Positions 2,683-43,270 of a stretch of 64,000 nt of DNA are shown in pieces (the first letter of the stretch is position 1; the number at the start of each line of letters is the position of its first letter). The position numbers and the translations under genes are program-made. The DNA is taken from the NCBI GenBank assembly GCA_035517655.1, contig DATIYJ010000041.1, positions 5,801 to 69,800 on the forward strand. Direction: 5' to 3'. The notes under the pieces are model-generated. The model made no database searches, was not told the origin of the DNA, and saw only the letters and a list, made by a program, of their open reading frames with translations. This stretch comes from Nitrospiria bacterium (GTDB lineage: Bacteria; Nitrospirota; Nitrospiria; JACQBZ01).

Positions 2683-2689
2683 AGTAGAG

Positions 2690-2772: not shown

Positions 2773-2793
2773 AATCAGAACGGAGATATTTCG

Positions 2794-3924: not shown

Positions 3925-3939
3925 CCCGGGAGCTTCCTC

Positions 3940-8883: not shown

Positions 8884-8886
8884 TTG

Positions 8887-8962: not shown

Positions 8963-9000
8963 AGACCTCTAATTAGAAGTGACTTTCCTAATGTTACATT

Positions 9001-9131
9001 CGGCGGGTCCTGTCCTTCGGTTGGATCGCGAGCCGTTTGGGGCCGGACCCTTCGGCTCCGGCGGCTTCCGTTCGATTGGGCCCTGCCGGCGGGTGGCCGC
9101 AGGCGGGGCTGCCGAAGGACAGGACCCGTCG
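9001..9131. repeat. Long inverted-repeat structured element (16 bp perfect arms about 90 nt apart)
   Basis: GGGTCCTGTCCTTCGG at 9005-9020 and CCGAAGGACAGGACCC at 9112-9127 are perfect reverse complements. The interior contains further GC hairpins (GCCGGA...TCCGGC). Lies 14 bp beyond the stop of the minus-strand phosphoesterase gene. Confidence 0.5.
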
Positions 9132-9143
9132 AATAGATCTCTT

Positions 9144-19574: not shown

Positions 19575-19825
19575 CGTTTTGAATCAGGGAGGATCGACAC
19601 TCGGACATTGTAGTGGGATTTTTCCGGGAATGCGAATAAAATATTGCGAACCGATCCGCAATTCATTATACTTAAAACCAACGACGGATTCGAGACGGCC
19701 GCTTGATCCGGCCTCCCCGCGCTTCCATCGTGTTCATCGCGCCGGTATTCGGCCCGTTTCTCCGAAGATTATCCTTCATCGTGGTCAACCTGAAGCCGAA
19801 TTTTTAGGAGACACCGAGGTTCCGA

Positions 19826-24249: not shown

Positions 24250-24252
24250 GCG

Positions 24253-25068
24253 ATGGGACTTTCGGTCCGACCGATCGGGATCCCCTCGCGGCGAAGAAAG
24301 GCCGGCCGGTTTCCGGCCGTTTTTCTGGATTTTGACGGCACGCTGGCGCCCATCGCCGCCCGGCCGGAGCAGGCTCGGTTGCCGTCCGAAATGCGCCGCC
24401 TCCTCACGCGGCTGTCCCGCCGCGCGCCGGTGGTGATCGTGAGCGGACGGTCCCTCCCGGACCTCCGGTCCCGCATCGGTCTGCCGGGCCTCGTGTATGT
24501 CGGCAACCACGGGCTGGAGATCGCCGGATGCGGATTGCGGTACCGCATGGAGGACGCGGACGATTGGCGCCGTCGGCTGAAAGCCCTGGGCGACCGGTTG
24601 CGGGAGACGATGGGATTCCTTTCCGGTATTTTTATCGAAGACAAAGGCTATACCCTGAGCGTTCATTACCGCCTGGCCGGCGGCGCCGTCCGGCGCCGGG
24701 CGGCCCGGCGCTTCGCCGAATGGCTGGGGCCGCTTCGGCGCCGGGGACGGGTCCGGGTCGTCCGGGGAAAGGCGGCCTGGGAAATCCGGCCGCCGGTCGA
24801 TTGGGACAAGGGTCGCGCCGTCGCCTGGATCCTCGATCAGCCGCGATTCCGGGGGCGATGGCCGTTGTACATCGGCGACGATGAAACGGATCAGGACGCC
24901 TTTCGGGCGATCCGAAAGGTCGGCCTCGGCATCGCGGTGGGTCCGCCGGAGAATAAAGGGGCGGCCCGTCACGCCGTCCAGAGTCCGAGGGAAGTCGAGG
25001 TGTTTCTCAGACGGCTGCTTTCTTTGTTGTCCACGAACCCGCCGCGATCGGAGGCCGGCCCGGTGTGA
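24253..25068 (+). CDS. otsB: Trehalose-6-phosphate phosphatase OtsB (HAD-IIB)
   Basis: HAD motif I FLDFDGTLAP. Motif IV GDDETD. 3 nt after the otsA stop. Confidence 0.85.
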   Translation: MGLSVRPIGIPSRRRKAGRFPAVFLDFDGTLAPIAARPEQARLPSEMRRLLTRLSRRAPVVIVSGRSLPDLRSRIGLPGLVYVGNHGLEIAGCGLRYRMEDADDWRRRLKALGDRLRETMGFLSGIFIEDKGYTLSVHYRLAGGAVRRRAARRFAEWLGPLRRRGRVRVVRGKAAWEIRPPVDWDKGRAVAWILDQPRFRGRWPLYIGDDETDQDAFRAIRKVGLGIAVGPPENKGAARHAVQSPREVEVFLRRLLSLLSTNPPRSEAGPV

Positions 25069-25377
25069 TCGGGGCCGACAGGCACCCTTTAAACGCTTCG
25101 TGATGTCCGCGGGTCTTGACCTGCCGGGCTTTCTCCATGGATAGTCCGGTTCGCTGGGCGATTATCTTCAAGCCCATCCTCCGAAAACTCTCAAGACCGC
25201 TCCGGTGTCGCGTTCGACGACCGGTTTTGACTAGCGAAATGAAGAATTTCCTCGGGCATCACCATACAATGCGCCTCGAAAAAGAGGACGAACGATGTCA
25301 CACCAATGAAAATCTTTCTTGCAATGGCCGTCTCCAAATCTTAGACTTAAGAAGCGAAACCGTATTGAAGGGAAGTT

Positions 25378-27063
25378 ATGAATCTTAGTCCCCTCGCGGG
25401 AAAGCCGGCTTTGCCCTCGATGCGGGTCGACGTGCCCAAACTCGTTACCGCCTATTATACCGAGGTGCCTGACCCTTCGGTGCCGGAGCAACGGGTTGCG
25501 TTCGGCACTTCGGGGCATCGCGGTTCCGCACTCGAGAAGACGTTCAACGAATGGCATATCCTCGCCATCAGTCGGGCCATTTGCCTGTATCGGGAGCGGC
25601 AGAAGATCGACGGCCCGTTGTATCTCGGTATGGACACGCATGCGCTCTCCGTGCCGGCTCTGGCCAGCGCACTTGAAGTGCTGTCGGCCAACGGGGTGGA
25701 TGTCATGATTGCGGAGAGGGAGGAATATACCCCGACCCCGGCCGTTTCCCACGCGATTCTCGCCCACAACCGCGGGCGCAAGAGAGGGCTCGCGGACGGC
25801 ATCGTGATCACCCCTTCGCATAATCCGCCCCATGACGGGGGCTTCAAGTACAATCCCCCGAGCGGCGGACCGGCGGAGACCGGTGTCACCGGTTGGATCG
25901 AGGCGAAGGCCAACGAGTTGCTTAAGAAGGGCCTCCAAGGCGTAAAGAGAATTTCCTTCGAAAAGGCTCTTCGCGCCCCTACAACGCACCGGCACAACTA
26001 CCTCGAAGCCTACACGAGCGATCTCGGCCATGTGATCGATATGGACGCCATTCGCCGCGCGGACATTCGTCTGGGGGTCGATCCGCTCGGCGGCGCCGGG
26101 GTTCACTATTGGGGACGGATCGCGGAGCGCTACGGGTTGAACCTCACGGTCGTCAATGAGGCCGTCGATCCGACCTTCCTTTTCATGACGGTGGATTGGG
26201 ACGGCCAGATCCGCACGGACCCCTCCTCGCCCCATGCGATGCAAAGATTGATTGCCCTGAAGGATCGCTTCGAGATCGCCTTTGCCTGCGACGCCGACCA
26301 TGACCGGCACGGGATTGTCACGCGGAGCGCGGGGTTGCTGCCGCCCAACCACTACCTTGCGGCCGCCGTCTTCTACCTCTTTCAGCACCGGCCGATGTGG
26401 CGCAAAGAAGCGGCGGTCGGTAAGACGGTGGTGAGCAGCCGGATGATTGATCGCGTCACCGCGAAGCTGGGTCGGAAGCTTTATGAAGTTCCGGTCGGCT
26501 TCAAGTGGTTCGTGGACGGCCTGCTCGACGGCTCGCTCGCCTTCGGCGGTGAAGAGAGCGCGGGTGCCTCTTTCGTCCGTCTGGACGGCCGCGTTTGGAC
26601 GACGGACAAAGACGGCATCGTCCCGGCCTTGCTCGCGGCGGAGATCGCCGCGCGGGAGGGCCGGGATCCCGGCGAGATCTACCGCGGGCTGACACGCGAG
26701 TTCGGCGAGCCCGCGTATGACCGCGTCGAGGCGCGGGCCACTCCGGAGCAGAAGGAGATGCTCGCCAACCTTTCGCCGCAACAGGTCCGGCTCAAAGTCC
26801 TCGCGGGAGAGCCGATCCGGACCATCCTCACCCGCGCGCCGGGCAACGGCGCTCCCATCGGCGGACTGAAGGTGATCACCGATAGCGGGTGGTTTGCGGC
26901 GCGTCCGTCGGGGACCGAGAATATCTACAAGATTTATGCGGAAAGCTTCCGGGGAGCGGATCATCTGCGCCGCATCCTGGAGGAGGCACAGGCGATCGTC
27001 AACGACGTTCTCGGAGCCTCTCCGCCTCAGCCGGGGGTCCGCCCGAGACAAAGTCGAAGGTGA
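25378..27063 (+). CDS. pgm: Phosphoglucomutase (alpha-D-glucose phosphate-specific)
   Basis: Active-site loop [15 protein letters not shown]. Mg-binding DADHDR. 561 aa. Confidence 0.9.
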
Positions 27064-27968: not shown

Positions 27969-29171
27969 TTAGGCCGACGGCTTCAACGCGCTTCGCTCGG
28001 TCCAGGTGACCCCGATGGCCGTCAGCAGGTTTGTAAGCAGGATGATCAGCAGCACGATGTCCACGAAGGCCTCCGTCCCTGGAATGCCGGCCGCGACGGG
28101 AAGGGGGGCCAGCACGGCCGCCGCCAGTCCGCGGGCCGTCATCAGCCAAAGAACCATCTTTTCCGGTTTCCGATCACGGTAGACCCAGACCAGCAGTTGC
28201 GCGGCTAGGTAGCGGGACAGAACGATGGCCCCGAAGATCAACAGGCACAGCAGAAGGTTGAGCGGGCCGAGGTGGTCCATGGTGAATATGAGCCCGATAT
28301 AGACGAAAAAGAAGGTGCGGATGAAGAAGGCCAGTTCTCCGTGAAACCCCCGGATCGTGGCCTCGGAGGAGTTGGAGGCCAGCGCGGTTCCGAAGAGGGA
28401 GGGGAAGCGCTTGTAGTTGCCCAGGATCAGGCCGAAGACCAGAGCCGCCATGGCGCCGTTCCCCCGGATGAATTCGGCCAGGCTGAACAGGAGAAACAAT
28501 ATCGCGAGGGTCAGCATGTAGGAGAACTGCGGACGTTTGAGCCGTTCCAGGAATTTCGACCACCCGATGCCGCAGGCCGCGCCCAAAAGGATCCCGATGA
28601 TGAATCGACCGAGCAGATCCTGGATCGGGGCGATCCATTCCGCCCGGCCGGTGGGGATCAGGTGCACCAGGCTCAATCCGATCACCACGCAGAGGATGTC
28701 GGTGAGCGACGATTCCAGGCTGAGGATCGTCTTGGCCTCCTCGCTGATCCGCATCTGGGCGACCAGGGGCATCACGATGGCGCCGCTGGTGCCGCCGACG
28801 ATGGCCCCCAGCAGGAGGCCGAGGGGTAACGGGTAGCCGAAGAGCCATGCGATGAACGCGGTGAGGGCCGCCGTGGCCAGAAATCCGAGCACGGCCAGCA
28901 GGACGGCGCCGGTGAACTGGCGCAGGATGCTCCGGAGATCGAGCGCCATGCCCCCGTCGAAGAGAATCATGATCATTGCAAACGTCGCAAAGTAGGGCGT
29001 GAAATTGGCGAGCTGCGCCGGGTCCAGCAGATGGAGAAACGGGCCGAGCAGGATGCCGATGAAGAGCAGCACCGGCAGATCCGGAATCCGGGTCCGCTGG
29101 AAAACGACCGAGCCGAAGAAGCCGATGAAGATGATGATCCCGATGAGGGCGAAGGCCAGGTTGACTGTCAT
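27969..29171 (-). CDS. Cation:proton antiporter (CPA1/CPA2, Na+/H+ exchanger family)
   Basis: 400 aa, about 11-12 TM helices, Na_H_Exchanger-like glycine-rich segments. Confidence 0.8.
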   Translation of the reverse strand: MTVNLAFALIGIIIFIGFFGSVVFQRTRIPDLPVLLFIGILLGPFLHLLDPAQLANFTPYFATFAMIMILFDGGMALDLRSILRQFTGAVLLAVLGFLATAALTAFIAWLFGYPLPLGLLLGAIVGGTSGAIVMPLVAQMRISEEAKTILSLESSLTDILCVVIGLSLVHLIPTGRAEWIAPIQDLLGRFIIGILLGAACGIGWSKFLERLKRPQFSYMLTLAILFLLFSLAEFIRGNGAMAALVFGLILGNYKRFPSLFGTALASNSSEATIRGFHGELAFFIRTFFFVYIGLIFTMDHLGPLNLLLCLLIFGAIVLSRYLAAQLLVWVYRDRKPEKMVLWLMTARGLAAAVLAPLPVAAGIPGTEAFVDIVLLIILLTNLLTAIGVTWTERSALKPSA

Positions 29172-29217: not shown

Positions 29218-29246
29218 TTGAAAGGTCCGCCTAGATGCGTTATACT
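29218..29246 (+). promoter_or_regulatory. Candidate promoter of the glycosyltransferase pair operon
   Basis: TTGAAA-N17-TATACT about 75 nt upstream of the ATG at 29322. RBS AAGGAAGAG. Confidence 0.4.
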
Positions 29247-29321: not shown

Positions 29322-30533
29322 ATGGCCGATTTTCATCAGACCGGAGTCATATCGACGCTTCACCGTCTGGGCCGCGTGGATCTGGATTGGCTGGAGACGC
29401 AATTGGAGGCCTTCTCCCACCAGATGCCGATCGCCTTGGTCCTTCCCAGTCTCTACTCCGAGCTTCAAGGGCCGGCGCTGAAGGAGATCCTCAAGCAATT
29501 GCAGTCCGTAAAATATCTTCGCGAGATCGTGATCACACTGGGCCGGGCGAACCGGGAGGAGTTCGACCATGCGCGGCGGTTTTTTAAAGACCTCTATTGC
29601 GAGCACCGGATCGTGTGGGTCGACGGAGAGCGCATCCAGAAACTTCTGGCGCTCCTGACGCAGAACGACCTGGACATCGGAAGCGAAGGCAAGGGCCGCG
29701 CGGCCTGGCTCGCGTACGGGTACATCCTGGCGAAGCGGCGGAGCAAGGTGATCGCGCTTCACGATTGCGACATTCTGACCTACGACCGCGAATTCCTGGC
29801 GCGTCTTTGCTACCCCGTGGTCAATCCCAACATGGGTTATGAATTCTGCAAGGGCTACTACCCGCGGATCACGGACCGGCTGCACGGGAGGGTCACCCGG
29901 CTTTTCGTGACGCCGTTGATCCGGACCCTGATGAACATGATCGGCCATCATCCCTTCCTGGTTTATCTTGACAGCTTTCGTTACCCGCTGGCCGGCGAAT
30001 TCTCGATGCTGGCCGACCTGGCCCGCGTCAACCGGATTCCGGGCGACTGGGGGCTCGAAATCGGGGTGCTGGCCGAGATCTACCGCAACGTTTCGGTCAA
30101 ACGGGTCTGCCAGGCGGATCTGTCGGAAAACTACGAGCACAAGCATCAGGCGCTTTCGTCGGAGGATCCGAGCGCCGGACTGTTGAAGATGGCGATCGAC
30201 ATCGGGAAGTCCCTGCTGCGGAACCTGGCGACGGAAGGGCTGGTTTTCGACGCGGCCTTCTTCAACACGCTCCGCACGGCCTACCAGCGGGCGGCCCAGG
30301 ACGCGATCAAGAAATACGAGGACGACGCCACCATCAACGGCCTCGTCTTCGACCGCCATGCCGAGCGGCTGGCGGTCGACGCCTTCATCCGGGGGATCCG
30401 GATCGCGGCCGAGGAATTCGTCCAGGACCCGCTGGGTATCCCGTTGATCACGAACTGGAACCGGGTCGTCTCGGCCGTTCCGAAGTTTTTCGAGATGCTC
30501 GAGAACGCCGTCGACGTGGACAACGCGGAATGA
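29322..30533 (+). CDS. GpgS/MGS-like retaining glycosyltransferase (GT81/GT78-type, GT-A fold), paralogue A
   Basis: G-K-G motif SEGKGRAAW. DXD HDCDI. YYPR, PLAGEFSM and WGLEIGVL segments align with conserved GpgS (PGKGEALW, DSDL, SGEYAA, YGVEIGLL) and mannosylglycerate synthase motifs recalled from memory. Confidence 0.65.
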   Translation: MADFHQTGVISTLHRLGRVDLDWLETQLEAFSHQMPIALVLPSLYSELQGPALKEILKQLQSVKYLREIVITLGRANREEFDHARRFFKDLYCEHRIVWVDGERIQKLLALLTQNDLDIGSEGKGRAAWLAYGYILAKRRSKVIALHDCDILTYDREFLARLCYPVVNPNMGYEFCKGYYPRITDRLHGRVTRLFVTPLIRTLMNMIGHHPFLVYLDSFRYPLAGEFSMLADLARVNRIPGDWGLEIGVLAEIYRNVSVKRVCQADLSENYEHKHQALSSEDPSAGLLKMAIDIGKSLLRNLATEGLVFDAAFFNTLRTAYQRAAQDAIKKYEDDATINGLVFDRHAERLAVDAFIRGIRIAAEEFVQDPLGIPLITNWNRVVSAVPKFFEMLENAVDVDNAE

Positions 30534-31810
30534 CGGCGGCCATGGTGCGAGAGGATCTGAAGCCCCGCCTGGACGCCGTCGGACAGGCCGATATTCTGGT
30601 CGGCGTCCCCAGCTACAACAACGCGAGGACCATCGGCCGCGTCGTGCAGGCGGTCGGGGCCGGGCTGGCGAAGTATTTTCCCGAGGCCCGGGCGGTTCTC
30701 GTGAATTCCGACGGCGGATCGAACGACGGAACACCGGAGACGGTCGAAAAATCGACGGTGGACCTGCAAAGCATCCTCGTGGCCCACCGCGTCAATCCGC
30801 TTCACAAGATCGTCACGCCCTACCATGGGATACCCGGAAAGGGGAGCGCCTTCCGGCTGATTTTCGAGATCGCGGAGGCCTTGAAGGTCAGGGCCTGCGC
30901 GGTGGTGGACGCCGATCTGCGCAGCATCACGCCGGACTGGATGGAGCTGCTCCTGCGACCCGTCTACAAGGAAGGCTACGATTACGTCGCGCCGTATTAC
31001 CGCCGGCACAAGTACGACGGCACGATCACCAACGGGATCGTCTATCCGCTGACCCGGGCCTTGTACGGGATGCGCATTCGACAGCCCATCGGCGGCGAGT
31101 TCGGCTTCACGGGCGAGCTGGCCGCATATTTTTTGGCCCAGGACGTCTGGGAAACGGACGTCGCGCGCTACGGGATCGATATCTGGATGACGACCACGGC
31201 GATCGCGCGGGGCAGCCGGATCTGCCAGGCGTACCTGGGCGCGAAGATCCATGATCCCAAGGATCCGGCCGCCGACCTTTCGGCCATGCTGACCCAGGTG
31301 GTGGGTTCGACGTTTTCCTTGATGGAGAAGTATGCGGAACAATGGAAGGCCGTCCGGTTCGCGCAGTCCGTGCCGATCTTCGGCTTCGAGTACGACGTGG
31401 GGCTGGAGCCGGTTCCGGTCAACGTCGACCGGATGGTCAAGGCGTTCGAACTGGGGCGGGAGGAATTGATGGCGTTGTGGACCGAGGTCCTGTCGTCGGA
31501 CACGCTCGCCGGTCTGAAGGACGTGAAGCCGGGGGAATCGGGGCCCGGATTTTCCGACGGGCTCTGGACCCAAATCGTCTACGAGTTCGCCCTGGCCTTC
31601 CACCGCCGGGTGATGACGCGGGAACATCTCTTGAAATCCTTCACGCCCCTTTATCTCGGAAGGGTCGCCTCCTTCATCCTGGAGACCCGGTCGCTGAGCT
31701 ACCTTGAAGTGGAAGGCCGCATCGAGCGGTTGTGTCAATGCTTTGAACGCGAAAAGAACTATTTGACGGATCGGTGGGATCAACCATCGGTTCGGGGAGG
31801 GGCGTCATGA
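30530..31810 (+). CDS. GpgS-like retaining glycosyltransferase (GT81-type), paralogue B
   Basis: ILVGVPSYNNARTIGRVV Rossmann start. PGKGSAF, DADL, GGEFGFTGEL and YGIDIWM match the GpgS motif order. ATGA overlap with the upstream GT. Confidence 0.65.
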   Translation: MTAAMVREDLKPRLDAVGQADILVGVPSYNNARTIGRVVQAVGAGLAKYFPEARAVLVNSDGGSNDGTPETVEKSTVDLQSILVAHRVNPLHKIVTPYHGIPGKGSAFRLIFEIAEALKVRACAVVDADLRSITPDWMELLLRPVYKEGYDYVAPYYRRHKYDGTITNGIVYPLTRALYGMRIRQPIGGEFGFTGELAAYFLAQDVWETDVARYGIDIWMTTTAIARGSRICQAYLGAKIHDPKDPAADLSAMLTQVVGSTFSLMEKYAEQWKAVRFAQSVPIFGFEYDVGLEPVPVNVDRMVKAFELGREELMALWTEVLSSDTLAGLKDVKPGESGPGFSDGLWTQIVYEFALAFHRRVMTREHLLKSFTPLYLGRVASFILETRSLSYLEVEGRIERLCQCFEREKNYLTDRWDQPSVRGGAS

Positions 31811-32511
31811 AAGAAGTCTGGCAGACCGGATTTATCGATCCCATGGAGGCGTTTTTAAAACAGATGGGGGCCTTTCTGCCCCATCTGGTCGCGATGATCG
31901 TGGTTCTATTGTCGGGCGTCCTGGTCGCCTGGGTCGTGAAGAGCGCGGTGTTCCGGCTTCTGACCACGGCCAAGTTTGACCAGTACTCCGGCCGGATCGG
32001 GCTGTCGCTGGCTTTATCGAAAAACGGAATCCGCGAATCGCCGGCGCACTGGGTCGGCCGCATCGCGTACTGGATGATCGTCCTAATCTTCCTCATGCTG
32101 GGCTTGGAGGTCCTGAACCTCAACCCGGTGGATCAATTTGCGGCCCAGGTCTTTTCCTATCTGCCCCACATGCTGATCGCGGTCGTGATCCTCATCGTCG
32201 GGTTTCTTCTGGGCAACTTCTTCGCGCGCGCCGCGTTGATCGCGGCCGTGAACGCCCAGATCGTCGAGGCGCGGTTCCTGGCCCGGACCGTCCGGATCGC
32301 GATCCTGCTTCTCGCGCTCGCAATGGCCTTCGAGCAGCTCGGGATCGCAAAGGACGTCATCATCGCGGCCTTCTCGATCACGCTGGGGGGCGTCGTGCTG
32401 GCGCTGGCGATCGCCTTCGGTCTGGGGGCGCGGGATGCGGCCAAGCAATTCATCGAGCGGCGCTTAAGAAGGGAACAGGAGCAGAAGGAGGAGGATTTCT
32501 CCCATCTCTGA
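31807..32511 (+). CDS. CmpX-like 'conserved TM helix' membrane protein (MscS-related family)
   Basis: Repeated TM-helix units (VVLLSGVLVAWVVKSAV..., IAVVILIVGFLLGNFFARA...) and a charged C-terminal tail. ATGA overlap with the upstream GT. Confidence 0.6.
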   Translation: MKEVWQTGFIDPMEAFLKQMGAFLPHLVAMIVVLLSGVLVAWVVKSAVFRLLTTAKFDQYSGRIGLSLALSKNGIRESPAHWVGRIAYWMIVLIFLMLGLEVLNLNPVDQFAAQVFSYLPHMLIAVVILIVGFLLGNFFARAALIAAVNAQIVEARFLARTVRIAILLLALAMAFEQLGIAKDVIIAAFSITLGGVVLALAIAFGLGARDAAKQFIERRLRREQEQKEEDFSHL

Positions 32512-32534
32512 ACGGCTCGTACGGCGGTGAGTCC

Positions 32535-34673
32535 TTATCGCGTGCGTCGCTCCTGCGAAACCAGCCGGAACACCGCGAGGGAGCGTTCCTGTAAATTATA
32601 GGTCCGGCCGCCGCGGGCCAGCCGCTTTCCTTTTTCGGGTTTTTCAGCGGCGGTGTCAAGCGTCAGCCCCCATCGGGTGTCTTTCTTGTGCGCGGGAAGG
32701 ATGAACGGGACGGCCTCGTGGTGCGCGTTCAGAAGAATGAGCAGCGTATCGCCGGTGATCCGCTGCCCCAGCTCGTCCACGTCGTCGATCGCGTCCCCGG
32801 CCAGCCGCACGCCGAGGCAGCGCGCCGATTCCGCGTTCCATTCTTCGTCCGTCATCTCGTGGCCTTTGGGTGAAAACCAGGCGATGTCCTTGATCTCGGA
32901 TCCCCGAAGATATCTCCCTTGAAAAAACTTGTGACGGCGCAGGACGGGATGGGTCTTCCGGAGGCGGAGGACGTCCCGGACAAACTGCAAGAACTCCCGC
33001 TGCTCCTTGTTCAGGTTCCAGTCGTACCACGAGATCTCGCCGTCCTGGCAATACGCGTTGTTGTTCCCGCGCTGCGTCCGTCCGATCTCGTCGCCGCCGC
33101 AGATCATCGGGACGCCCTGGCTGAACATCAGGGTCGCCATAAAGTTCCGTTTTTGCTTTTCCCTCAGGGCCCGGATCTCGGGATCGTCGGTCGGCCCCTC
33201 CGCGCCGCCGTTCCAGCTGATGTTGTCGTCCGTGCCGTCACGGTTGTTCTCGCCGTTGGCCTCGTTGTGTTTTTGGTTGTAGCTCACCAGATCGTGGAGG
33301 GTGAACCCGTCGTGCGACGTGATGAAGTCGACGCTGGCGTGCGGGCGGCGGCCGCCCTGCTCGTAGAGATCGCTGCTGCCGGCGAGGCGGGTGGCCATCT
33401 CGGCCACCTGGCGCCCTTCCCCCTTCCAGAAGCGGCGGATCGCGTCGCGGTATTTTCCGTTCCATTCCGCCCACAGCACCGGGAAATTCCCGATCTGGTA
33501 TCCCCCCTCGCCCAGGTCCCACGGCTCGGCGATGAGCTTCACCTGCGAAATGACCGGGTCCTGCTGGATGATGTCGAAGAACGCGCCCAGACGGTCCACC
33601 TCGTGAAGCTCCCGGGCCAGGGCGCTGGCGAGATCGAAGCGGAAACCGTCCACGTGCATCTCGCCGACCCAGTACCGCAGGCTGTCCATGATCAGCTGGA
33701 GGACCTGGGGATGAAGCATGTTCAGGGTGTTCCCGCAGCCGGTGTAATCCACGTAGAATCTCGGGTTGTCCTTGTCCAGCCGGTAATAGGCCGCGTTGTC
33801 GATGCCGCGAAGGGACAGCGTGGGGCCGAGGTGGTTGCCCTCGGCCGTATGGTTGTAGACGACGTCCAGGATCACCTCGATGCCCCAGTCATGCAGGGAG
33901 CGGACCATCATCTTGAATTCGTCGGCCAGGTTCATGGTTCCGGATCCGTAGCGGTTGTCCGGGGCGAAGAACGAGAGGGTGTTGTATCCCCAGTAATTCG
34001 TCAGTCCGCGCCGGGTGAGGTCGTAATCGTCGACATGATGGTGGACCGGCAGCAGCTCGATCGCCGTCACGCCGAGACCGAGCAGGTGTTGGATGACCGG
34101 CTCGCAGGCCAGGCCGGCATAGGTTCCGCGTAGGGGCTGCGGAACCTCCGGATGCCGGACGGTCAGACCTTTCACGTGGGTTTCGTAAATCACGGTCCGG
34201 TGCCAGGGGATCCGCGGGGGACGGTCGTTTCCCCAGGTGAAGGCCGGATCGACCACCGCGCAGAGCGAGGCGAAGGCGGCGTTGTCGCGGTAGTCCCTCG
34301 CCAGGTCCTCGGCCGGATCGCCGATCCGGTAGGCGAACATGGCGTCGTCCCACTGGATGCGCCGGGTCACGGCCTTGGCGTAAGGGTCCACCAGGATCTT
34401 GGCGGGGTTGAACCGGTGCCCCGAACTCGGATCATAGGGCCCGTGGACCCGGTAGGCGTAGAGCCATCCGGGCCGCGCGTCGGGCAGGTAGATATGCCAG
34501 ATCCGGTTCGTCTGCTCGGTCAGCGGGATCCGATGGCTTTCCTTCGGGGCGCCCGCCGACTCGAAAAGGCAAAGGTCGACCCGGGTCGCGTGCTCCGAGA
34601 AGATCGCGAAATTGACGCCTTTTCCGTCCCAGGTGGCCCCCAGGGGATACGGATGGCCCGGCATGGTTCTCAT
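32535..34673 (-). CDS. glgX: Glycogen debranching enzyme GlgX
   Basis: GH13 motifs ([12 protein letters not shown]). N-terminal CBM48 ([23 protein letters not shown]). 712 aa. Confidence 0.9.
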
Positions 34674-34689
34674 GATTCCTTCCTCAAAT

Positions 34690-34834
34690 TTAGAGGGGCT
34701 CGCGTCGCCCCCAAACTATAGGGACTGGATACGGGATAAAGGATGCCGGTGATGAAAATATTTTTTACTCGCATCTTGCATCCCGCATCTTGTATCTGAC
34801 CCGCCTCCCCCTCCCGTTCGCCTTGCTCGTTGAG
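34690..34834 (+). repeat. Intergenic repeat family copy 3 (long form, about 145 bp) between glgX and glgB
   Basis: TAGAGGGGCTCGCGTCGCCCCC ... AT-rich insert ... CCTCCCCCTCCCGTTCGCCTTGCTCGTTGAG. The right end abuts the glgB stop. Confidence 0.7.
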
Positions 34835-34837
34835 TAT

Positions 34838-36790
34838 CTACCCTTTAAAAAAAAGCGCGCCCAGGGGAGGCAGGGTCAGCGCGAGCGAGTGGGAACGCCC
34901 ATGGGCGGGGACGGGCGCGGCCTCGGCGCCTCCGGCATTTCCGAGCCCGCTTCCGCCGTAGAAGGCGGAGTCGCTGTTGAGCAGTTCGCGCCAGTAGCCG
35001 CCGCCCGGAACTCCGACCCGGTATTGGTATTTCGGGACCGGGGTGAAATTGAAGACCGTCAGGATGATCTCGCCCGCGTTCGTTCCCTTCCTTAGAAAAC
35101 TGACCACGCTCTGCTCCCAGTCGTTGCAATCGATCCATTCGAAGCCTTCGGCGTCGAAATCCCGCTCGTGCAGGGCCGGTTCCGCACGGTACAGGCGGTT
35201 GAGGTCCGCGATCCATCGCCGGATCCCGTTGTGGTTCGGGAATTGAAGCACGTGCCATTCGAGACTTTCCTCGTGCTTCCATTCGCGGACCTGGCCGAAT
35301 TCGCCGCCCATGAAAAGCAATTTTTTTCCGGGATGGCCGTACAGGTAGCCGTACAGCAGCCGGAGGTTGGCGAAGCGCTGCCATTCGTCCCCGGGCATCT
35401 TGCCGATGAGCGATCCCTTGCCGTGCACCACCTCGTCGTGGGACAGGGGCAGGATGAAATTTTCCGAGAAGGCGTACCACAGGCTGAAGGTGAGCTGGTT
35501 GTGGTGGTATTTCCGGTACAGGGGGTCCTCCGAGAAATAGGCCAGGGTGTCGTGCATCCAGCCCATGTTCCATTTCATCCCGAAGCCCAGGCCCCCCACA
35601 TGGGTCGGCCGGGAGACCATGGGCCAGGCGGTCGATTCCTCCGCAAAGATCTGAACGTCCGGAAATTTCCCGTAGGCGGATTCGTTCAGGCGCTTGAGGA
35701 AATGGATGGCATCGAGGTTCTCGCGGCCGCCGTAAACGTTGGGGATCCACTCGCCTTCTTTTCGGGCGTAGTCCAGGTAGAGCATCGAGGCCACCGCGTC
35801 CACGCGGAGGCCGTCGATGTGGTATTTGTCCAGCCAGAACAGCGCGCTGCTGATCAGGAAGGACCGGACTTCGTTGCGGCCGTAGTTGAAGATGAAGCTG
35901 TTCCATTCGGGATGAAATCCCTTACGGGGATCGGCGTGCTCGTAGAGGTGGGTCCCGTCGAAGTACGCCAGTCCGTGCTCGTCGGAGGGAAAGTGGGAGG
36001 GGACCCAGTCCAGGATCACGCCGATGCCCTCCTGATGGAGATGATCGACCAGGTACATGAAATCCTGGGGTGTGCCGTAGCGCCGCGTCGGGGCGAAATA
36101 GCCCGTCGTCTGGTATCCCCACGAACCGTAGAAGGGATGCTCCGTGATCGGCATCAACTCGACGTGCGTGAAGCCCGTTTCCTTGACGTGGGCCGCGAGA
36201 GGGCGGGCCAATTCCCGGTAGGTCAGCGGCCGGTTGCCTTCCTCGGGAACGCGCCGCCACGAACCGAGGTGCACTTCGTAGATCGCGAGGGGAGCGGCGA
36301 GGGCGTTCGCCCGTTTCCGCTTCGCCATCCAGTCCCGATCGCCCCAGTCATAGTTTAGGTCCCAGACCACGGATGACGTTTTGGGCGGGCATTCCCATCC
36401 GAAGGCGAAGGGGTCGCCTTTGTTCACGTTGAACGATTGATTTCCGGAGCTGACGTGATACTTGTAAAGGGCCCCCGGCCCGATTCCGGGAAGGAAGCCC
36501 TCCCAGATCCCGGATGCGTCCCCCCGGACCGAGAGCGGGTGGGCCTGGGGCTTCCAGCCGTTGAAATCCCCCACGACCGAAACGCGCTCGGCGTTCGGCG
36601 CCCATACCGCAAAGACCGTTCCGGCGGCGCCCTGCGCCGTGATCGGATGCGCGCCGAGTTTCTCGTACAGCAACGTGTGATTTCCCTCTTTGAGAAGGAA
36701 AATATCATAGTCGGTCAAGAGACCGACCGGGCCGGGATCCGGCGGGCGGGACGCTCGTGTGAAATCTCCGGGCATCGACTTGTTTTCCAT
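34838..36790 (-). CDS. glgB: 1,4-alpha-glucan branching enzyme GlgB
   Basis: CBM48 followed by a GH13 catalytic domain ([17 protein letters not shown]). 650 aa. Confidence 0.9.
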
Positions 36791-36831
36791 GGCACTCCCT
36801 GCTCAAATGATAAAGCCATCTCCGTCGCTTG

Positions 36832-37668
36832 TCAAACCGACTTCGGAGAGTTGTTCAAGATTTTAAGAACGGCCTTATTCCAGCCGGCCGGGCCGATTCC
36901 GTCGGCGCGTACAAGTCCCGGAAGCGCGATCGCATCTTCGTAACTTCCGTCCGGCCTACGGACCAGGACGGGCCGGTCGACGCCCGCAAGCATCGGAAGA
37001 TCGTTCAGACTGTCCCCGAGTCCGACCGTGAGGATCGCGCCGTACTGACGCCGGTAAATTTCGGACAGGATCGCGACCGCGCGTCCCTTGTCGTTGTTCC
37101 CCGTCAGATGGGGGAAGCGGCCGCCCTTCGTCCAGCGGAAGCCCTTGGACTCGATCCGGCTCAGGACGGCTTGTCGCTGTTCCGGCGTTCCTTCGATGAT
37201 GAACGGCTCGTCGTACTCGCGGGCTCTGGCCCGTTCGGCTTCGTTCAGCGGCAAGCCGGTTTGCGATGCGACTTCCTCCGCGTTCATATCCCCGAAACCT
37301 TTCACGACGGTTCGGGTTTCACGGGCGATCTCTTGGAGGGCGATGCGTAAAAGGCGATAGGGGATTCCGATCTCGACGGTCCGGCCACCCTCGGCGTGTG
37401 GATCGGCCGAGAACGGGACGGTGAAGCAACCCTCCGGAATCAGGATCGCGCCGCCGTTTTCGACGATGAAGGGGTGACGGTGGCCCATGGCCCGCCGGAG
37501 AGGCTCCATTTCGGCCCTCGTCTTGCTGCTGCAAAGAACCCAGGGAACGTTTCGTTCCTCAAGACGATTGAGCGCGGGCTTTGCCGCCTGCCAGGAGTAG
37601 GTTTCGGCGTCCAGAAGCGTCCCGTCCAGATCGGTGAAGAGGACCGGTTGCGGATCGGGGCGCGGCAT
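36832..37668 (-). CDS. HAD-IIB phosphatase of the mannosyl-/glucosyl-3-phosphoglycerate phosphatase family (MpgP/GpgP/YedP-like)
   Basis: VLFTDLDGTLLDAETYSWQAAKPALNRLEERNVPWVLCSSKTRAEM closely parallels the E. coli YedP/MpgP N-terminus. C-terminal GDSLNDLPM motif. Confidence 0.8.
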   Translation of the reverse strand: MPRPDPQPVLFTDLDGTLLDAETYSWQAAKPALNRLEERNVPWVLCSSKTRAEMEPLRRAMGHRHPFIVENGGAILIPEGCFTVPFSADPHAEGGRTVEIGIPYRLLRIALQEIARETRTVVKGFGDMNAEEVASQTGLPLNEAERARAREYDEPFIIEGTPEQRQAVLSRIESKGFRWTKGGRFPHLTGNNDKGRAVAILSEIYRRQYGAILTVGLGDSLNDLPMLAGVDRPVLVRRPDGSYEDAIALPGLVRADGIGPAGWNKAVLKILNNSPKSV

Positions 37669-37677
37669 GCGGGCCTC

Positions 37678-39141
37678 CTACATTAAGCGGGCGTTGATCA
37701 AAAAATGCGCCCAGACACTGAGCGCGTACCCCAGCGCGATCGCCCAGGTCCAGCGCAGATGGGAAATGAAGGTGTAGACGCCCGGCGCCTGTCCCATGAG
37801 CGCGACGCCGGCCGCCGAGCCGACCGACAGCAGCGAGCCGCCCACGCCGGCCGTCAGGGTGACCAGCAGCCACTGACCGTGGGACATCTCGGGATGCATC
37901 GTCAGGACCGCGAACATGATCGGGATGTTGTCCACGATCGCCGACATCAGCCCCACCAGCACGTTGGCCGCGGTCGGCCCCAGGTCGACATACAGAACAT
38001 GGGATGCCGAGGCCAGATACCCGATCGTGCTCAGCCCGCCGACGCAGAGGATCACCCCGTAGAAGAACAGCAACGTGTCCCACTCCACCCGTTTCATGAT
38101 GGCGAAGATGTCGAAGGACGGGGCCCCCTCGCCGGCGGCGCTCCCTCCAAGCGCCTTGCGCCGGAGAAAGTGGCCGTTGATTTTCAGCAAGCCCAGGCCG
38201 GTCATCATGCCGAGGACCGGGGGCAGGTGAAGAAAATTTTGGAAAGAGACCGCCATGGCGATCGTGAGGAGGAACAGCCCGACCACCCCGAGCGCGCCCG
38301 GTTTGAGCGCGACCGTATCCCGGGCCGGGTTCGGCCGTCCTTTCGGGACGGCGAGCGACAAGATCAGCGCCGGGACGAGCCAGTTGATCAGGGCCGGTAC
38401 GAACAGGTCGAAGAATTCCAAGAACCGGACGGCGCCTTTCTGCCAGACCAGCAGTGTCGTGATATCGCCGAAGGGGCTGAAGGCCCCGCCGGCGTTCGCG
38501 GCCACCACGACGTTGATCGCGGCCAGGGCGACGAAGCGCGGATGGCCCTCGCCGGCCGCGATGACCACGGCCGCGATGACCAGCGCGGTCGTGAGGTTGT
38601 CGGCAAACGGGGAGATGAAAAAGGCCAGGAGCCCGGTGATCCAGAAGATCGACCGAAGGGAAAGTCCCGCCGAGACCAGCCGGGCCCGCAGCGCGTGGAA
38701 GACGTTTCGCTCCTCCATCGTGTTGACGTAGGTCATCGCGGCGATCAGGAAGAGGAGCAGCTCCGCGTACTCGAGAAGGTTGTGCCGGATCGCGGCGGCG
38801 GCCGCGGCCGCATCCCCCTCCATGGCGTAGGCGATGCCGATCAAGGTCCAGATCACGCCGGAGGCCACGACGACCGGTTTGGATTTCCGGAGATGGAACA
38901 ATCCCTCGGCAAAGACCAGCGCGTAGGCCAGGGCGAAGACGACGATCGAAGCGATCCCGAATCCGCTTCCGGTGAGGTCGAGAAGCCGGCCGTCGCCGTT
39001 TTCGGACGAGGCGAGGACGGTCGAAGGGGAAAGGAGCACCGGAAATGTTGCGAGAAACGGCCAGGCCGCTCCGGCGGTTCTTGCAAGGGGGATGATTCGT
39101 TCCATTGAGGTTAGAATACCCGCAACGGTATGAGGATGCAA
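37678..39141 (-). CDS. Na+/H+ antiporter NhaD-family (ArsB/NhaD permease superfamily)
   Basis: About 12 TM helices. NhaD-like conserved segments. Start uncertain (39141, or MERIIPL at 39102). Confidence 0.75.
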   Translation of the reverse strand: MHPHTVAGILTSMERIIPLARTAGAAWPFLATFPVLLSPSTVLASSENGDGRLLDLTGSGFGIASIVVFALAYALVFAEGLFHLRKSKPVVVASGVIWTLIGIAYAMEGDAAAAAAAIRHNLLEYAELLLFLIAAMTYVNTMEERNVFHALRARLVSAGLSLRSIFWITGLLAFFISPFADNLTTALVIAAVVIAAGEGHPRFVALAAINVVVAANAGGAFSPFGDITTLLVWQKGAVRFLEFFDLFVPALINWLVPALILSLAVPKGRPNPARDTVALKPGALGVVGLFLLTIAMAVSFQNFLHLPPVLGMMTGLGLLKINGHFLRRKALGGSAAGEGAPSFDIFAIMKRVEWDTLLFFYGVILCVGGLSTIGYLASASHVLYVDLGPTAANVLVGLMSAIVDNIPIMFAVLTMHPEMSHGQWLLVTLTAGVGGSLLSVGSAAGVALMGQAPGVYTFISHLRWTWAIALGYALSVWAHFLINARLM

Positions 39142-39158: not shown

Positions 39159-39723
39159 TCAGTTTCGTTTTCTTTTGTAGCGGCTTTTGACCAGTCCGTT
39201 GGAATAGACCTTGGTCCGTACGTGTTGGAAGCTCAGATCATGGTCCAGATCGCCGAAGAGGGGAAGGCCGCTTCCGATCAGCAAGGGGGCTTTTGTAATG
39301 ATCAGCTCATCGATGCAGTCTTCTTTCAGAAAGCCCTGAATCACTTTTCCGCCGTCGACATAGATATTCGAGCAGCCTTCCTTGGAAAGATAATTCAGCA
39401 ACGCTTTGGGCTTCATTGAAAGAACCGTCGCTTTCCCTTTTAACTTATCCGGTATTTTTTTGAGACGGGTGCTCAGCACGAAGACTTTCTGATCATAAGG
39501 CCAGGAGGGAAACGTGAGGACGCTTTCAAACGTGCCCCTTCCGATCACGACCGCGTCGATCGTGCTCATGAATTTACGATAGTCGTCTCTCACGGGCTTC
39601 TCGAAGCGGACCAGCCAGTCGAGCCCCCCCGTCTTTTCTCGCAATAAAGCCGTCAAGGCTCGTTCCGATGTAGACGATCGTCTTTGTTCGTCGGTTTTTG
39701 GGCGGGGGGGCTTTAATCTTCAT
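39159..39723 (-). pseudogene. DHFR-family / RibD C-terminal domain reductase with a frameshift in a G7 (plus-strand C7) homopolymer
   Basis: From the ATG at 39723: MKIKAPPPKNRRTKTIVYIGTSLDGFIARKDGG, then the frame is lost at CCCCCCC (39632-39638). The downstream frame continues LDWLVRFEKPVRDDYRKFMSTIDAVVIGRGTFESV..., the canonical DHFR-like family. With six G the reading is continuous. Confidence 0.6.
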
Positions 39724-40117
39724 GGCCGATTTCAGTTCTTCTCCCGCGCGTCAGCCAGTAGATGAAACCGCCGGCTCCGCCGAGCAAGAAGCCCAAGGGA
39801 CCGGTTATGAAAATACCGAGAAGCGGGCCCTGGTTGGCCCCCGGATCAAAAATCATCGGTCCGAAGAAGCCCGCCGAAAAACCGATGCCTCCCAGCACGA
39901 TGGCCCCGTAGAAGACCGAGGAAATCAAATCGCCGGGCGCCGATCCGGTTTTTCTCCAGACATACCAGCCCGCGCCCGCCGCGCATACTAGCGACACGAT
40001 GCTGGCGATCCAACGCTGGTCGCCCAGGGGGATCAATGAAAACGGCAGCCAATAGATGAAGAAGTTGGTCGCGGGCACCACGAACAAAACGGCCAGTACT
40101 CGAAAACCCCACTTCAT
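39713..40117 (-). CDS. Small hypothetical membrane protein (Gly-rich TM helices)
   Basis: 134 aa, 3-4 TM segments. No recognisable domain. Confidence 0.45.
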   Translation of the reverse strand: MKWGFRVLAVLFVVPATNFFIYWLPFSLIPLGDQRWIASIVSLVCAAGAGWYVWRKTGSAPGDLISSVFYGAIVLGGIGFSAGFFGPMIFDPGANQGPLLGIFITGPLGFLLGGAGGFIYWLTRGRRTEIGHED

Positions 40118-40205
40118 CAGGAGAAGGCCTCCACTCGGAATGATTGCACTATTTCATTATAGCTCCTTGCGTACGGCTCCGGAGCGCGACGCATTAAACC
40201 CTGTC

Positions 40206-40586
40206 TCAGTCGTTATAATGGGCGACGACCCTCGACACCTTTCCCGTACGGCCGATTTCCATGAACTCTCCCGTTTTCGCGCCTTTTTGATTCACATAGT
40301 ACAGCACGACGCTGTTCAGCCCCCACATCAGGTCGAGCAATCGAAACGCCAGGTCGGGATAGGCTTCAAGCCCCTTTTTGAAGTAGGCGCGCAGCGCGGC
40401 CTCGCCGCGGACGGTGCCGGACGGATCGTTCAGGAGTTTCGCGGCGACCGGCGAGCTCAATACCACGTCGTCTTCATAATGCGACATGATTTTGTCCAAA
40501 TCATGCGCGTTCCAGGCCGCCATCCAGTGATTCGCCAATTCATTGGCTTGCTCTTTCGTCATCATACGCGTCTCCAATTCATCCAA
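40206..40586 (-). CDS. SnoaL-like / NTF2-fold protein (ketosteroid isomerase-like)
   Basis: ANHWMAAWNAHDLDKIMSHYEDDVV is typical of the SnoaL-like polyketide cyclase family. Confidence 0.65.
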   Translation of the reverse strand: MDELETRMMTKEQANELANHWMAAWNAHDLDKIMSHYEDDVVLSSPVAAKLLNDPSGTVRGEAALRAYFKKGLEAYPDLAFRLLDLMWGLNSVVLYYVNQKGAKTGEFMEIGRTGKVSRVVAHYND

Positions 40587-40612
40587 CTCTCCGTTCCGGC
40601 GCGGGATAAGGA

Positions 40613-40885
40613 TTACTTGTTCTGGCGCTCCAGACTGTTCGCGATTCGCCCAAGCTGGTTCTCGATTCCTTCCAAGTGGTGGACGATCTTATCCCAGGGT
40701 TGGTTGAATCGAAAGCGACGCATGAGAAAGAACCACACAAGCATAAATAAGAGGAACGGTCCCCATGTTACAAGGAATGTGATCAGGAAACTCATCACAT
40801 CGGGATTGTTATCAGACGCAAAGGCCACCGCCGGCAAAAAAAGGCCGGCGAAAAAGCTGACGGCTTTCATCATATGTTTATACAT
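40613..40885 (-). CDS. Small hypothetical membrane protein
   Basis: 90 aa, two TM helices. Low-GC region. Confidence 0.45.
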   Translation of the reverse strand: MYKHMMKAVSFFAGLFLPAVAFASDNNPDVMSFLITFLVTWGPFLLFMLVWFFLMRRFRFNQPWDKIVHHLEGIENQLGRIANSLERQNK

Positions 40886-41031
40886 CGGACCTCCGTTTTT
40901 TAAGTCCCTTCTTTATTATTTCTTTACTTTTAACGGTCCGTATTCGGCCGCCTGCCATACCCTCGGCTCCGGCGCGGGGAAACAGTGTCATATTTCATGA
41001 ACGTACCCAGGGCCTTTTCTAATAGGTCGAA

Positions 41032-41771: not shown

Positions 41772-41800
41772 TGACAAGATCGTAAAGTTCTTCTACGATG
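41772..41800 (+). promoter_or_regulatory. Candidate promoter of the FGGY kinase gene (near-leaderless)
   Basis: TTGACA-N17-TACGAT ending 7 nt before ATG 41798. Confidence 0.4.
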
Positions 41801-41806
41801 CGCCGC

Positions 41807-43270
41807 ATGGCGGAATTTCTTTTGGGACTCGATCAGGGGAGCACGAACTCGAAAGCTGTTCTTGTAGACCGCAAAGGGCGTATCGTTCGTCTTGCGGCCG
41901 CGCCGCTCAAGACGATCCGGCCCCGTCCGGGCTGGGTCGAGCACGATCCGAAGGCGATACTGAATTCCCAGTTGAACGCGGCCAAGCAATCGATCCGTTC
42001 TGTCGGCAAGAAAAATGTGATCACGGCCCTCGGCATCGCCAACCAGCGCTCGACGATCATTCTCTGGGACAAAAAAACCGGCCGCCCCTTGACGCCCGCG
42101 ATCAGCTGGCAGGATTTGAGAGCGGCCGAGCTGGCGCAACAGTGGGGCGAACAACGGGATTTGATCCGCTCGAAAACCGGACTGATGCTCACGCCGTATT
42201 ACGCCGCCCCGAAACTGCGCTGGCTTCTGGACCGCTCGAAGGGACTGCGCGCAAAAGCCGAAAAGGGAGACATCCTTTGCGGCACGGTCAACACCTATCT
42301 CATCTGGCAGCTCACGAAGGGCGAGGTCCACGCGACCGATCAAACCAACGCGGCGCGTACGCTCCTAATGAATCTGTACAGCCTCTCGTGGGATGAGGAG
42401 CTGTTGTCGCTTTTTGACATTCCCGCCCCGATGCTTCCACGCATCCTTCCGACCTCGGCCGAGTTCGGCGCGGCCCGTCTCGGCGGCGTTGTGATCCCGA
42501 TACGGGCCTCCATCGGGGATCAGCAGGCCGGGCTCCTGGGGCTGGGCGCGGTCGACGCGGGAGAGGCGGTCGTGAATTACGGCACCGGCGGGTTTCTGTT
42601 GGTGAACACGGGCGACCGATCGGTCCTGGTCCCGGGCTTGCTGTCCAGCCTCGCCTGGTCGACGCCGGATGAGACGGCCTACGTCACCGAGGGAACGGTC
42701 AATGCCGTGGGGACGGCGTTCGATTGGCTGCAAAAGACGGGATGGCTCAAGTCGCCGAACGAGATCGACCGGGTCGTCCGATCGTCCAACGAACGGGTCT
42801 ATCTCGTCCCGGCCCTCGCGGGGCTGGGCGCCCCGCACTGGCTGAGCGGGGCCCGGACGGGGATCTTCGGTCTCGGCCCGACGACCACGAAGGCGGACCT
42901 CATCCGCGCCGCGGTCGAGGGTATCGCTTTCCTGATCAAGGACATCGCCGAGGCGATACAACGGAACGGCCCGATCCGGATCAAGACGCTGACGGCCGGC
43001 GGCGGAGCGTCTTGCATCGACTCGTTGATTCAGACGCAGGCCGATTGGCTCGGCCTTTCGATCCGACGGTCCGATGCGGCCGAGGCCGCGGCCCTCGGCG
43101 CGGCGCTTCTGGCCGGCGTGGGAAACGGTTGGTGGAAATCCCCGTCGTTGGTTCCGAAGATCAGGACCGGAAAAATTTTCCGGCCCCGGATGGCCGAGGG
43201 CGAGCGCGAAAGAATCTACGGGCGGTGGAAGAGGGCGATCGAGGCGGTAAGGGTGTTCAGCGAGGGGTGA
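41807..43270 (+). CDS. FGGY-family carbohydrate kinase, glycerol-kinase-like
   Basis: LGLDQGSTNSKAV and RPGWVEHDP segments match the FGGY N-domain. C-domain GGGA motif (LTAGGGAS). Confidence 0.75.
   Translation: MAEFLLGLDQGSTNSKAVLVDRKGRIVRLAAAPLKTIRPRPGWVEHDPKAILNSQLNAAKQSIRSVGKKNVITALGIANQRSTIILWDKKTGRPLTPAISWQDLRAAELAQQWGEQRDLIRSKTGLMLTPYYAAPKLRWLLDRSKGLRAKAEKGDILCGTVNTYLIWQLTKGEVHATDQTNAARTLLMNLYSLSWDEELLSLFDIPAPMLPRILPTSAEFGAARLGGVVIPIRASIGDQQAGLLGLGAVDAGEAVVNYGTGGFLLVNTGDRSVLVPGLLSSLAWSTPDETAYVTEGTVNAVGTAFDWLQKTGWLKSPNEIDRVVRSSNERVYLVPALAGLGAPHWLSGARTGIFGLGPTTTKADLIRAAVEGIAFLIKDIAEAIQRNGPIRIKTLTAGGGASCIDSLIQTQADWLGLSIRRSDAAEAAALGAALLAGVGNGWWKSPSLVPKIRTGKIFRPRMAEGERERIYGRWKRAIEAVRVFSEG

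Follow-up and report, generated by a model that had tools for sequence, protein, structure and literature searches.

The genes described here lie in a 64,000-nucleotide stretch of a metagenome-assembled genome (MAG) of the Nitrospirota (Nitrospiria bacterium, GenBank assembly GCA_035517655.1, contig DATIYJ010000041.1, positions 5,801 to 69,800 of the forward strand), which in its full length is called the window. Four of them are involved in the proposed synthesis of glucosylglycerate (GG), a nitrogen-free, anionic compatible solute. Three overlap on the plus strand and encode two glycosyltransferases (GT1 and GT2) and a small membrane protein (TMH). The fourth, a phosphatase gene, is located on the minus strand, 4.3 kb from this operon beyond glgX and glgB, and 6.3 kb from gpgS, the GT1 gene. 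The pairing of GT2 with TMH recurs in nearly all of the species-representative genomes compared. The four genes are as follows:

29322-30533, plus strand: GT1, putative gpgS, 403 aa (NF040724)
30530-31810, plus strand: GT2, Ggs-family candidate, 426 aa (MGS_GT, fold, database names)
31807-32511, plus strand: TMH, PF05552 membrane protein, 234 aa from the ATG (PF05552)
36832-37668, minus strand: HAD-IIB phosphatase of the MpgP/GpgP family, 278 aa (TIGR01486)

The gene calls around the locus are open reading frames (ORFs) with a GC content at third codon positions (GC3) typical of real genes, in a window of about 62% GC; GC3 is 0.83 for all three plus-strand ORFs. Three public metagenome contigs carry the same 21 kb, and the independent gene calls made there are identical, with the same three products. 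Both junctions of the operon are ATGA overlaps, GGAATGACGG between GT1 and GT2 (30530-30533) and GTCATGAAAG between GT2 and TMH (31807-31810). The sizes, positions and ATGA coupling of these ORFs, as given in a first-pass annotation made from the sequence alone, are borne out.

Glycosyltransferases and phosphatase of the locus

GT1 is matched over its full length by NF040724, the GpgS_Meth model of NCBIfam (E=2e-113, 379.3 bits; residues 3-401 of 403 on model positions 2-399 of 402). Its sequence revealed the characteristic motifs of the group: (i) G-K-G (GKG123); (ii) the DxD of the GT-A metal site (DCD148); (iii) (A/G)GEF (AGEF224). The protein also resembles, remotely, the solved actinobacterial GT81 GpgS and MpgS structures. 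On these sequence features GT1 is read as a GpgS (EC 2.4.1.266) of the Methanococcoides/Persephonella type.

In GT2 the corresponding motifs are GKG103, DAD127 and GGEF188. The motif order G-K-G, DXD, GGE(F/Y) had been claimed for both transferases, and it holds for GT2; GT1 has AGEF in place of GGEF. They had likewise been called tandem paralogues. The two genes are overlapping homologues, but at 25% identity over 180 aa these are distant homologues, and a recent tandem duplication was rejected.

The Pfam matches of GT2 are marginal, MGS_GT (PF21969) with 29.8 bits at a cutoff of 27 and Glycos_transf_2 with 24.3 bits; no match to Glycos_transf_1 or GT4 was obtained in Pfam. NCBIfam, which has no Ggs model, yields a weak GpgS match only. 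The GT2 family is large, with 703 clusters at 50% identity (E<=1e-30). Homologues with 61-81% identity carry the JGI name “glucosylglycerate synthase”. Picking of low-GC-type family representatives did not reach a Persephonella member and found instead the Thermotogota representative P0195 (45% identity to GT2), which opens a branch of Petrotoga, Thermosipho, Kosmotoga and Mesotoga proteins. For two proteins of this branch, UniRef or NCBI gives the name glucosylglycerate synthase. With Petrotoga P0411, a homologue not confirmed as the assayed Ggs, GT2 shares 39% identity over 400 aa. Across the Nitrospirota and Thermotogota branches 63 columns are invariant, including RH.D.TITN, RQP.GG.FG and D129 of the DxD motif. 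Some family members (P0151, P0124, P0126, P0128, P0192) are fused to TrkA_N, Usp or extra GT2 domains.

The AF2 model of GT2 (pLDDT 88.8) is a soluble, two-domain protein of the mannosylglycerate synthase (MGS) type, without a transmembrane (TM) segment. Its best PDB match is the mannosylglycerate synthase of R. marinus (2BO4, 2Y4J; about 410 columns, TM-score 0.68-0.79), whereas the GpgS structures superpose on the GT-A domain only. The R. marinus enzyme (GT78) glycosylates free D-glycerate in one step. GT2 has the same layout of a GT-A domain followed by a C-terminal helical domain; the identity between the two is just 18-20%, and therefore a common architecture is shown, not orthology. In contrast to the GDP-mannose of the R. 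marinus enzyme, the donor of GT2 is probably NDP-glucose. When the GT-A domain is compared by family profile, GT81 GpgS (E=4e-12) comes somewhat nearer to GT2 than MGS does (E=1e-7). On the grounds of homology, fold and context, GT2 is most likely a candidate single-step glycosyl-glycerate synthase of the Ggs family (EC 2.4.1.268). The earlier placement of both transferases with the GpgS/MGS group was sustained by the profiles, GT1 on NF040724 and GT2 on MGS_GT and, through its family profile, on GpgS and MGS.

The phosphatase scores 250.4 bits on TIGR01486, the MpgP family (cutoff 164.75), and 242.1 bits on TIGR02461, the mannosyl-3-phosphoglycerate phosphatase equivalog, which is 2 bits under the cutoff of 244.35. 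The DLDGT nucleophile motif is found at residue 13. GpgPs of the HAD type are homologues of MpgP, and several are interchangeable on glucosyl-3-phosphoglycerate (GPG) and mannosyl-3-phosphoglycerate (MPG) (PMC3240985). The enzyme is proposed to be a glucosyl-3-phosphoglycerate phosphatase, the choice between GPG and MPG not being decidable from sequence. The opposite-strand order of glgX, glgB and an MpgP-type HAD-IIB phosphatase had been predicted correctly: glgX and glgB exceed their equivalog cutoffs and the phosphatase that of TIGR01486. The general idea of a glycosyl-glycerate locus stands as well, with GT1 on the GpgS model over its whole length and the phosphatase in the MpgP/GpgP family.

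Conservation of the GT2-TMH pair and its gene context

The neighbourhood of GT2 was compared in 80 loci, one genome per species, found by scanning with the GT2-family alignment (GT2 identity 58-65%); the window proteins were placed in them by tblastn, with flanks of 10 kb. These loci span Nitrospirota, Syntrophorhabdia and other Desulfobacterota, Nitrospinota, Aminicenantes, Acidobacteriota, Calditrichaceae, Gallionellales, Burkholderiales and a Clostridia MAG. TMH is located directly 3' of GT2 on the same strand in 78 of the 80, and the remaining two stop at a contig edge. The spacing between the GT2 stop and the TMH start usually falls between -4 and +60 nt. Conversely, a set of 80 metagenome loci was assembled on TMH similarity alone; 70 of these extend far enough 5' of TMH, and in 69 of the 70 GT2 is the gene directly before it. 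The sole exception (L163) has, in place of GT2, a 730-aa ORF at 60-2252 without Pfam match, which overlaps the TMH start. The pair is also kept at 52% (L091) and 41% (L093) GT2 identity. Chance adjacency is ruled out by these counts, and the link to a membrane protein, suspected from one locus in the first-pass annotation, is real and far stronger than could be seen there. Members of this Ggs clade are accompanied by TMH almost without exception. The pairing is apparently undescribed so far: among the papers found on both glucosylglycerate and mechanosensitive proteins (PMC11009771 and PMC5924519 included), judged largely by title and abstract, none appears to report a Ggs-linked PF05552 gene, and with this incomplete coverage a prior description is possible.

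TMH has five predicted TM helices (orthologues are 231-236 aa long), and by the positive-inside rule its N-terminus is predicted outside and its C-terminus inside. The “conserved TM helix” family PF05552 matches in two stretches (62.6 bits). Beyond it no Pfam match was found at E<=0.01, and the PF00924 beta domain and the MscS vestibule are absent. The “msc” model NF033912 reaches 93.2 bits at a cutoff of 100. With hhalign, residues 114-190 align to positions 23-101 of E. coli MscS (TM1, TM2 and the start of TM3; probability 87.8%), and Foldseek with the TMH model gives a local match to MscS only, of about 90 residues. The P. aeruginosa protein CmpX has been described as an MscS homologue (PMC10965496). 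The PF05552 helices are common to TMH and to MscS-family channels including CmpX. TMH differs from these channels in lacking the beta domain and vestibule, in two extra N-terminal TM helices, and in being tied to a glycosyltransferase gene. The relation to CmpX/MscS proposed earlier thus holds for the PF05552 helices, but “CmpX-like” is imprecise for a protein without the MscS beta or vestibule domain.

The chain continues for only some 25 residues beyond TM5, the last helix, which is Gly/Ala-rich. Among 42 homologues down to 45% identity, the segment LIAAVNA (residues 144-150) is completely or almost completely conserved, and the tail (D/E)(F/L)(S/R/T)HL, encoded at 32497-32508 of the window, is strongly conserved, with the penultimate H233 invariant. 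This C-terminal tail could be a docking peptide.

A soluble GT-A enzyme paired near-obligately with a polytopic membrane protein may also be seen as part of a membrane-bound glycosylation or export machine, which would make a glycolipid or an exported glycan with TMH as anchor or translocon. Some homologues bear the JGI name “glycosyltransferase involved in cell wall biosynthesis”, which is, however, a generic COG label. The soluble MGS-like model of GT2 does not agree with such a machine; hyaluronan and chitin synthases match this model weakly (TM-score about 0.4, rmsd above 15), and no lipid-carrier or polysaccharide-export genes occur among the conserved neighbours. This explanation is regarded as highly improbable.

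In addition to TMH, a GpgS-like gene occurs in 42 of the 80 loci: immediately 5' of GT2 in 33 (57-64% identity to GT1) and just 3' of TMH in four. An MpgP-like phosphatase gene (45-54% identity) occurs in 39, and in 16 of them it stands directly 3' of TMH on the same strand. Both genes are present in 35 loci, that is, in 35 of the 42 with a GpgS-like gene; 11 have one of the two (7 GpgS only, 4 phosphatase only). The linkage of synthase and phosphatase, presumed earlier from one genome, is confirmed by this co-occurrence. Neither gene was found in 34 loci, where, given the 10-kb flanks, a gpgS farther off is possible. Two modules emerge, GpgS with the phosphatase and GT2 with TMH, the second being found both in the presence and in the absence of the first. 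This distribution agrees with two separate routes that lead to a common product, and agrees poorly with a GT2 that needs the GpgS product.

Unbiased clustering of the ORFs of 162 loci, GT2 being present in 134, ranks TMH (133), the MpgP-like phosphatase (73) and GpgS (61) highest, followed by TreZ (25), TreY (24), an unannotated 387-aa protein (21) and TreT (18). Two GlgC-like ADP-glucose pyrophosphorylase genes lie directly 5' of GT2 in Syntrophorhabdus-type loci. In L091 the gene order is MFS transporter, GT2, TMH and, immediately 3' of the pair, a glycerate kinase (8025-9224; PF02595, 485.7 bits). The glycerate kinase and the GlgC-like neighbours point to glycerate and ADP-glucose as substrates. 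Other neighbours of GT2 in the window or in relatives are TreT, TreY, TreZ, OtsA/B, MscS, NhaD and a CPA antiporter; the trehalose genes, MscS and the antiporters, together with the TrkA_N and Usp fusions, point to osmoprotection.

The 387-aa protein (L127 3489-4652, L055 and 19 other loci) is encoded 0-16 nt, once 104 nt, 5' of GT2. It has no Pfam or NCBIfam match, carries GT-A-like DSD and ED motifs, and has no homologue in the window; possibly it adds a third glycosyltransferase to that subclade.

The gene context bears on a second explanation, in which GT2 would be a second-step transferase acting on GPG or GG, with the phosphatase following, and the product would be a diglycosyl-glycerate (mannosylglucosyl- or glucosylglucosylglycerate). 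It is favoured by the ATGA overlap of gpgS and GT2, by their adjacency in 33 genomes, often in the order gpgS-GT2-TMH-phosphatase, and by the accumulation of glucosyl-glucosylglycerate in Persephonella marina, where its synthase is not known to be assigned. The 34 genomes with GT2-TMH but without gpgS or phosphatase within 10 kb argue against it, as do the full-length fold match to a glycerate-accepting one-step synthase, the glycerate kinase neighbour in L091 and the relatives named Ggs. Moreover, MggA and MggS are GT4 Leloir transferases of the GT-B fold (PMC3736172), whereas GT2 is GT-A by Pfam and by its model. GT2 as MggA was rejected for this wrong fold class, and the mannosylglucosylglycerate-type route of the first-pass annotation is not upheld, given the fold class and the 34 genomes. 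A second-step role of GT2 in general is considered unlikely. In the systems with these GT4 enzymes (Petrotoga mobilis, Rhodopirellula baltica) the transferase acts, in Petrotoga, after GpgS and is clustered with it, and the R. baltica phosphatase MggB is not MpgP-like, unlike the phosphatase described here.

The surrounding osmostress island

The genes of the operon and the phosphatase are embedded in a larger island with the following further features:

19579-20874, plus strand: MscS
20871-21545, plus strand: DUF5752 protein
21542-22762, plus strand: TreT-like GT4
22759-24249, plus strand: OtsA-like GT20, below all equivalog cutoffs (OtsA 428 bits, GgpS 313 bits)
24253-25068, plus strand: trehalose-phosphatase
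25378-27063, plus strand: phosphoglucomutase
27969-29171, minus strand: CPA-type cation/proton antiporter, divergent from gpgS (PF00999, 160.7 bits)
29218-29246, plus strand: sigma-70-like promoter candidate TTGAAA-17-TATACT in the 150-nt gap 5' of gpgS (consensus match only; such sites are no commoner than in shuffled sequence)
32535-34673, minus strand: glgX, glycogen debranching enzyme (TIGR02100, 1054.6 bits, cutoff 640.9)
34838-36790, minus strand: glgB, 1,4-alpha-glucan branching enzyme (NF003811, 998.2 bits, cutoff 741)
37678-39141, minus strand: NhaD Na+/H+ antiporter, opening the minus-strand run (NF038006, 549.9 bits, cutoff 80)

Besides genes for trehalose synthesis and glycogen remodelling and a phosphoglucomutase, the island contains a full MscS and two cation/proton antiporters. 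The trehalose/osmostress block (19579-27063) is a second compatible-solute block 5' of gpgS, and most of its genes overlap start-to-stop. Of its members, TreT recurs near GT2-TMH in 13 and DUF5752 in 8 of the 80 genomes. The top NCBIfam matches of the CPA antiporter are K+/H+ antiporters, every one below its cutoff. The minus-strand run is formed from nhaD, the phosphatase gene, glgB and glgX, successively, with gaps of 9, 41 and 164 nt, and converges on the plus-strand operon, the stop codons of glgX and TMH being 23 nt apart. The solute phosphatase appears to be co-transcribed with the Na+/H+ antiporter and the glycogen branching and debranching genes. An Rfam search of the window revealed no regulatory RNA, and promoter and terminator scans gave nothing above the level of shuffled sequence.

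The glycogen genes adjoining the operon bring in a third explanation, a role of GT2 in alpha-glucan or polysaccharide metabolism, for example in making or extending a glucan primed with glycerate, comparable to the methylglucose lipopolysaccharide (MGLP) primer of mycobacteria, and not in the synthesis of a free osmolyte. In mycobacteria GG primes MGLP (PMC2674218, PMC3240985), and relatives of GT2 stand beside TreY/TreZ, GlgE, maltokinase and GlgC-like genes. Such neighbours are, however, expected equally in an osmolyte island sharing ADP-glucose and trehalose. A methyltransferase, an acyltransferase or a GH57 DggS-type gene was not seen among the conserved neighbours, and the antiporters, MscS and the TrkA_N/Usp fusions indicate osmoregulation. 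A glucan role is accordingly rated as quite improbable.

Further observations concern other parts of the window. Near the island, an FGGY kinase is encoded at 41798-43270 (plus strand), with glycerol kinase GlpK as best match (486.8 bits, cutoff 498). Between 40001 and 42000 the GC content falls to 0.524, compared with about 0.62 elsewhere, and this stretch could be foreign or non-coding DNA; the ORFs at 39713-40117 (minus strand) and 40056-41000 (plus strand) have no Pfam match. An RND efflux operon (1168-7023, plus strand) consists of an outer membrane factor (OEP), an HlyD-type adaptor and an AcrB-family pump.

Proposed pathway and relation to known systems

The locus is probably, at a moderate level of confidence, a two-route GG compatible-solute module inside the osmostress island. 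In the first route, suggested by homology, GpgS would join NDP-glucose and 3-phosphoglycerate to glucosyl-3-phosphoglycerate, from which the MpgP/GpgP-type phosphatase would remove the phosphate to give GG. In the second, suggested by homology, fold and context, GT2 would join ADP-glucose directly to D-glycerate, forming GG in one step. TMH may couple Ggs to the state of the membrane, either (a) as a small, tension-gated outlet through which the anionic solute would leave the cell on osmotic down-shock, or (b) as a sensor of membrane tension or ionic strength that would recruit or activate Ggs via the conserved cytoplasmic tail. Any specific mechanism for TMH is held with much less confidence than the pathway assignment.

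Several points weigh against this interpretation. The pathway assignment rests on homology, fold and gene linkage, from which the chemistry and the role of the partner are inferred. The score of GT1 (379.3 bits) lies below the NF040724 equivalog cutoff of 700, a value set for proteins very near to the archaeal enzyme; the GpgS relative in L055 scores alike (380.9 bits). The link of GT2 to characterised Ggs is made by database names, a Petrotoga homologue and the fold, and its donor sugar and acceptor are not readable from sequence. Two context types allow other roles: in L092 (47% GT2 identity) the gene stands in a GlgE/maltokinase context without TMH, and in L088 and L090 the Ggs-family gene closes an ABC sugar-transporter operon. 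As for TMH, its similarity to MscS is local, its AF2 model is moderate (pLDDT 74), no GT2-TMH fusion was found among the best 150 GT2-family representatives, and we know of no precedent for channel activity without the MscS cytoplasmic domains.

In P. marina, ggs, gpgS and gpgP reportedly form one operon-like cluster, as Fernandes et al. and Costa et al. are said to have described in 2007. A Methanococcoides/Persephonella-type GpgS, a HAD MpgP-like phosphatase and a second, Ggs-named GT-A enzyme are clustered here in a similar way. There are also differences between the two systems, which relate to (i) the position of the phosphatase gene, here on the opposite strand in the nhaD-phosphatase-glgB-glgX run; (ii) the translational coupling of Ggs to a PF05552 membrane protein; and (iii) the host, here a mesophilic-type Nitrospirota MAG. 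The dual pathway of P. marina, with GpgS and GpgP and a single-step Ggs, is cited in PMC3736172. The enzymatic core is ordinary, another instance of the Persephonella-type dual pathway, and the new part is the conserved Ggs-TMH pairing. In the literature searched, no description of GG synthesis was found for Nitrospirota, including the nitrite-oxidising Nitrospira, where coverage is incomplete and an earlier description is possible; the combination of glucosylglycerate and Nitrospira led to an ectoine review only, which does not connect the two.

A compatible-solute operon with its own mechanosensitive-channel-type gene has a parallel in Nitrosopumilus maritimus, where the ectABCD-mscS operon, according to what Widderich et al. 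reportedly wrote in 2016, carries the channel gene as a built-in safety valve. That channel is a complete MscS type and its linkage lineage-specific, in contrast to the truncated, TM-only partner described here, the linkage of which extends across several phyla.

A more specific version of the sensor option takes Ggs-TMH as a two-component osmosensing synthase: TMH would be a cage-less MscS module, mainly non-channel, that senses membrane tension or ionic strength, binds Ggs by its SHL tail and switches GG synthesis on and off. This version is regarded as doubtful. If true, it would mean that a mechanosensor has been repurposed for enzyme-level control of compatible-solute synthesis across Nitrospirota, Desulfobacterota, Acidobacteriota and other phyla.

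The gene contexts also have consequences for the naming of the family. The genes of the Thermotogota-type relatives (about 39% identity; L088, L089 of Petrotoga, L090) come last in an ABC sugar-transporter operon with a substrate-binding protein (SBP) and two permeases, with or without MalK, and are followed by an RpiR-type regulator; TMH is absent. The physiological role behind the name “Ggs” may thus not be a single one. By context, at least two classes of database “Ggs” proteins can be told apart, those paired with TMH and those linked to an ABC transporter, and their function may differ between them. The reciprocal Ggs-TMH linkage over several phyla provides a function-by-association handle on one PF05552-only clade without assigned function, and suggests a connection between membrane mechanics and the synthesis or release of a specific osmolyte.

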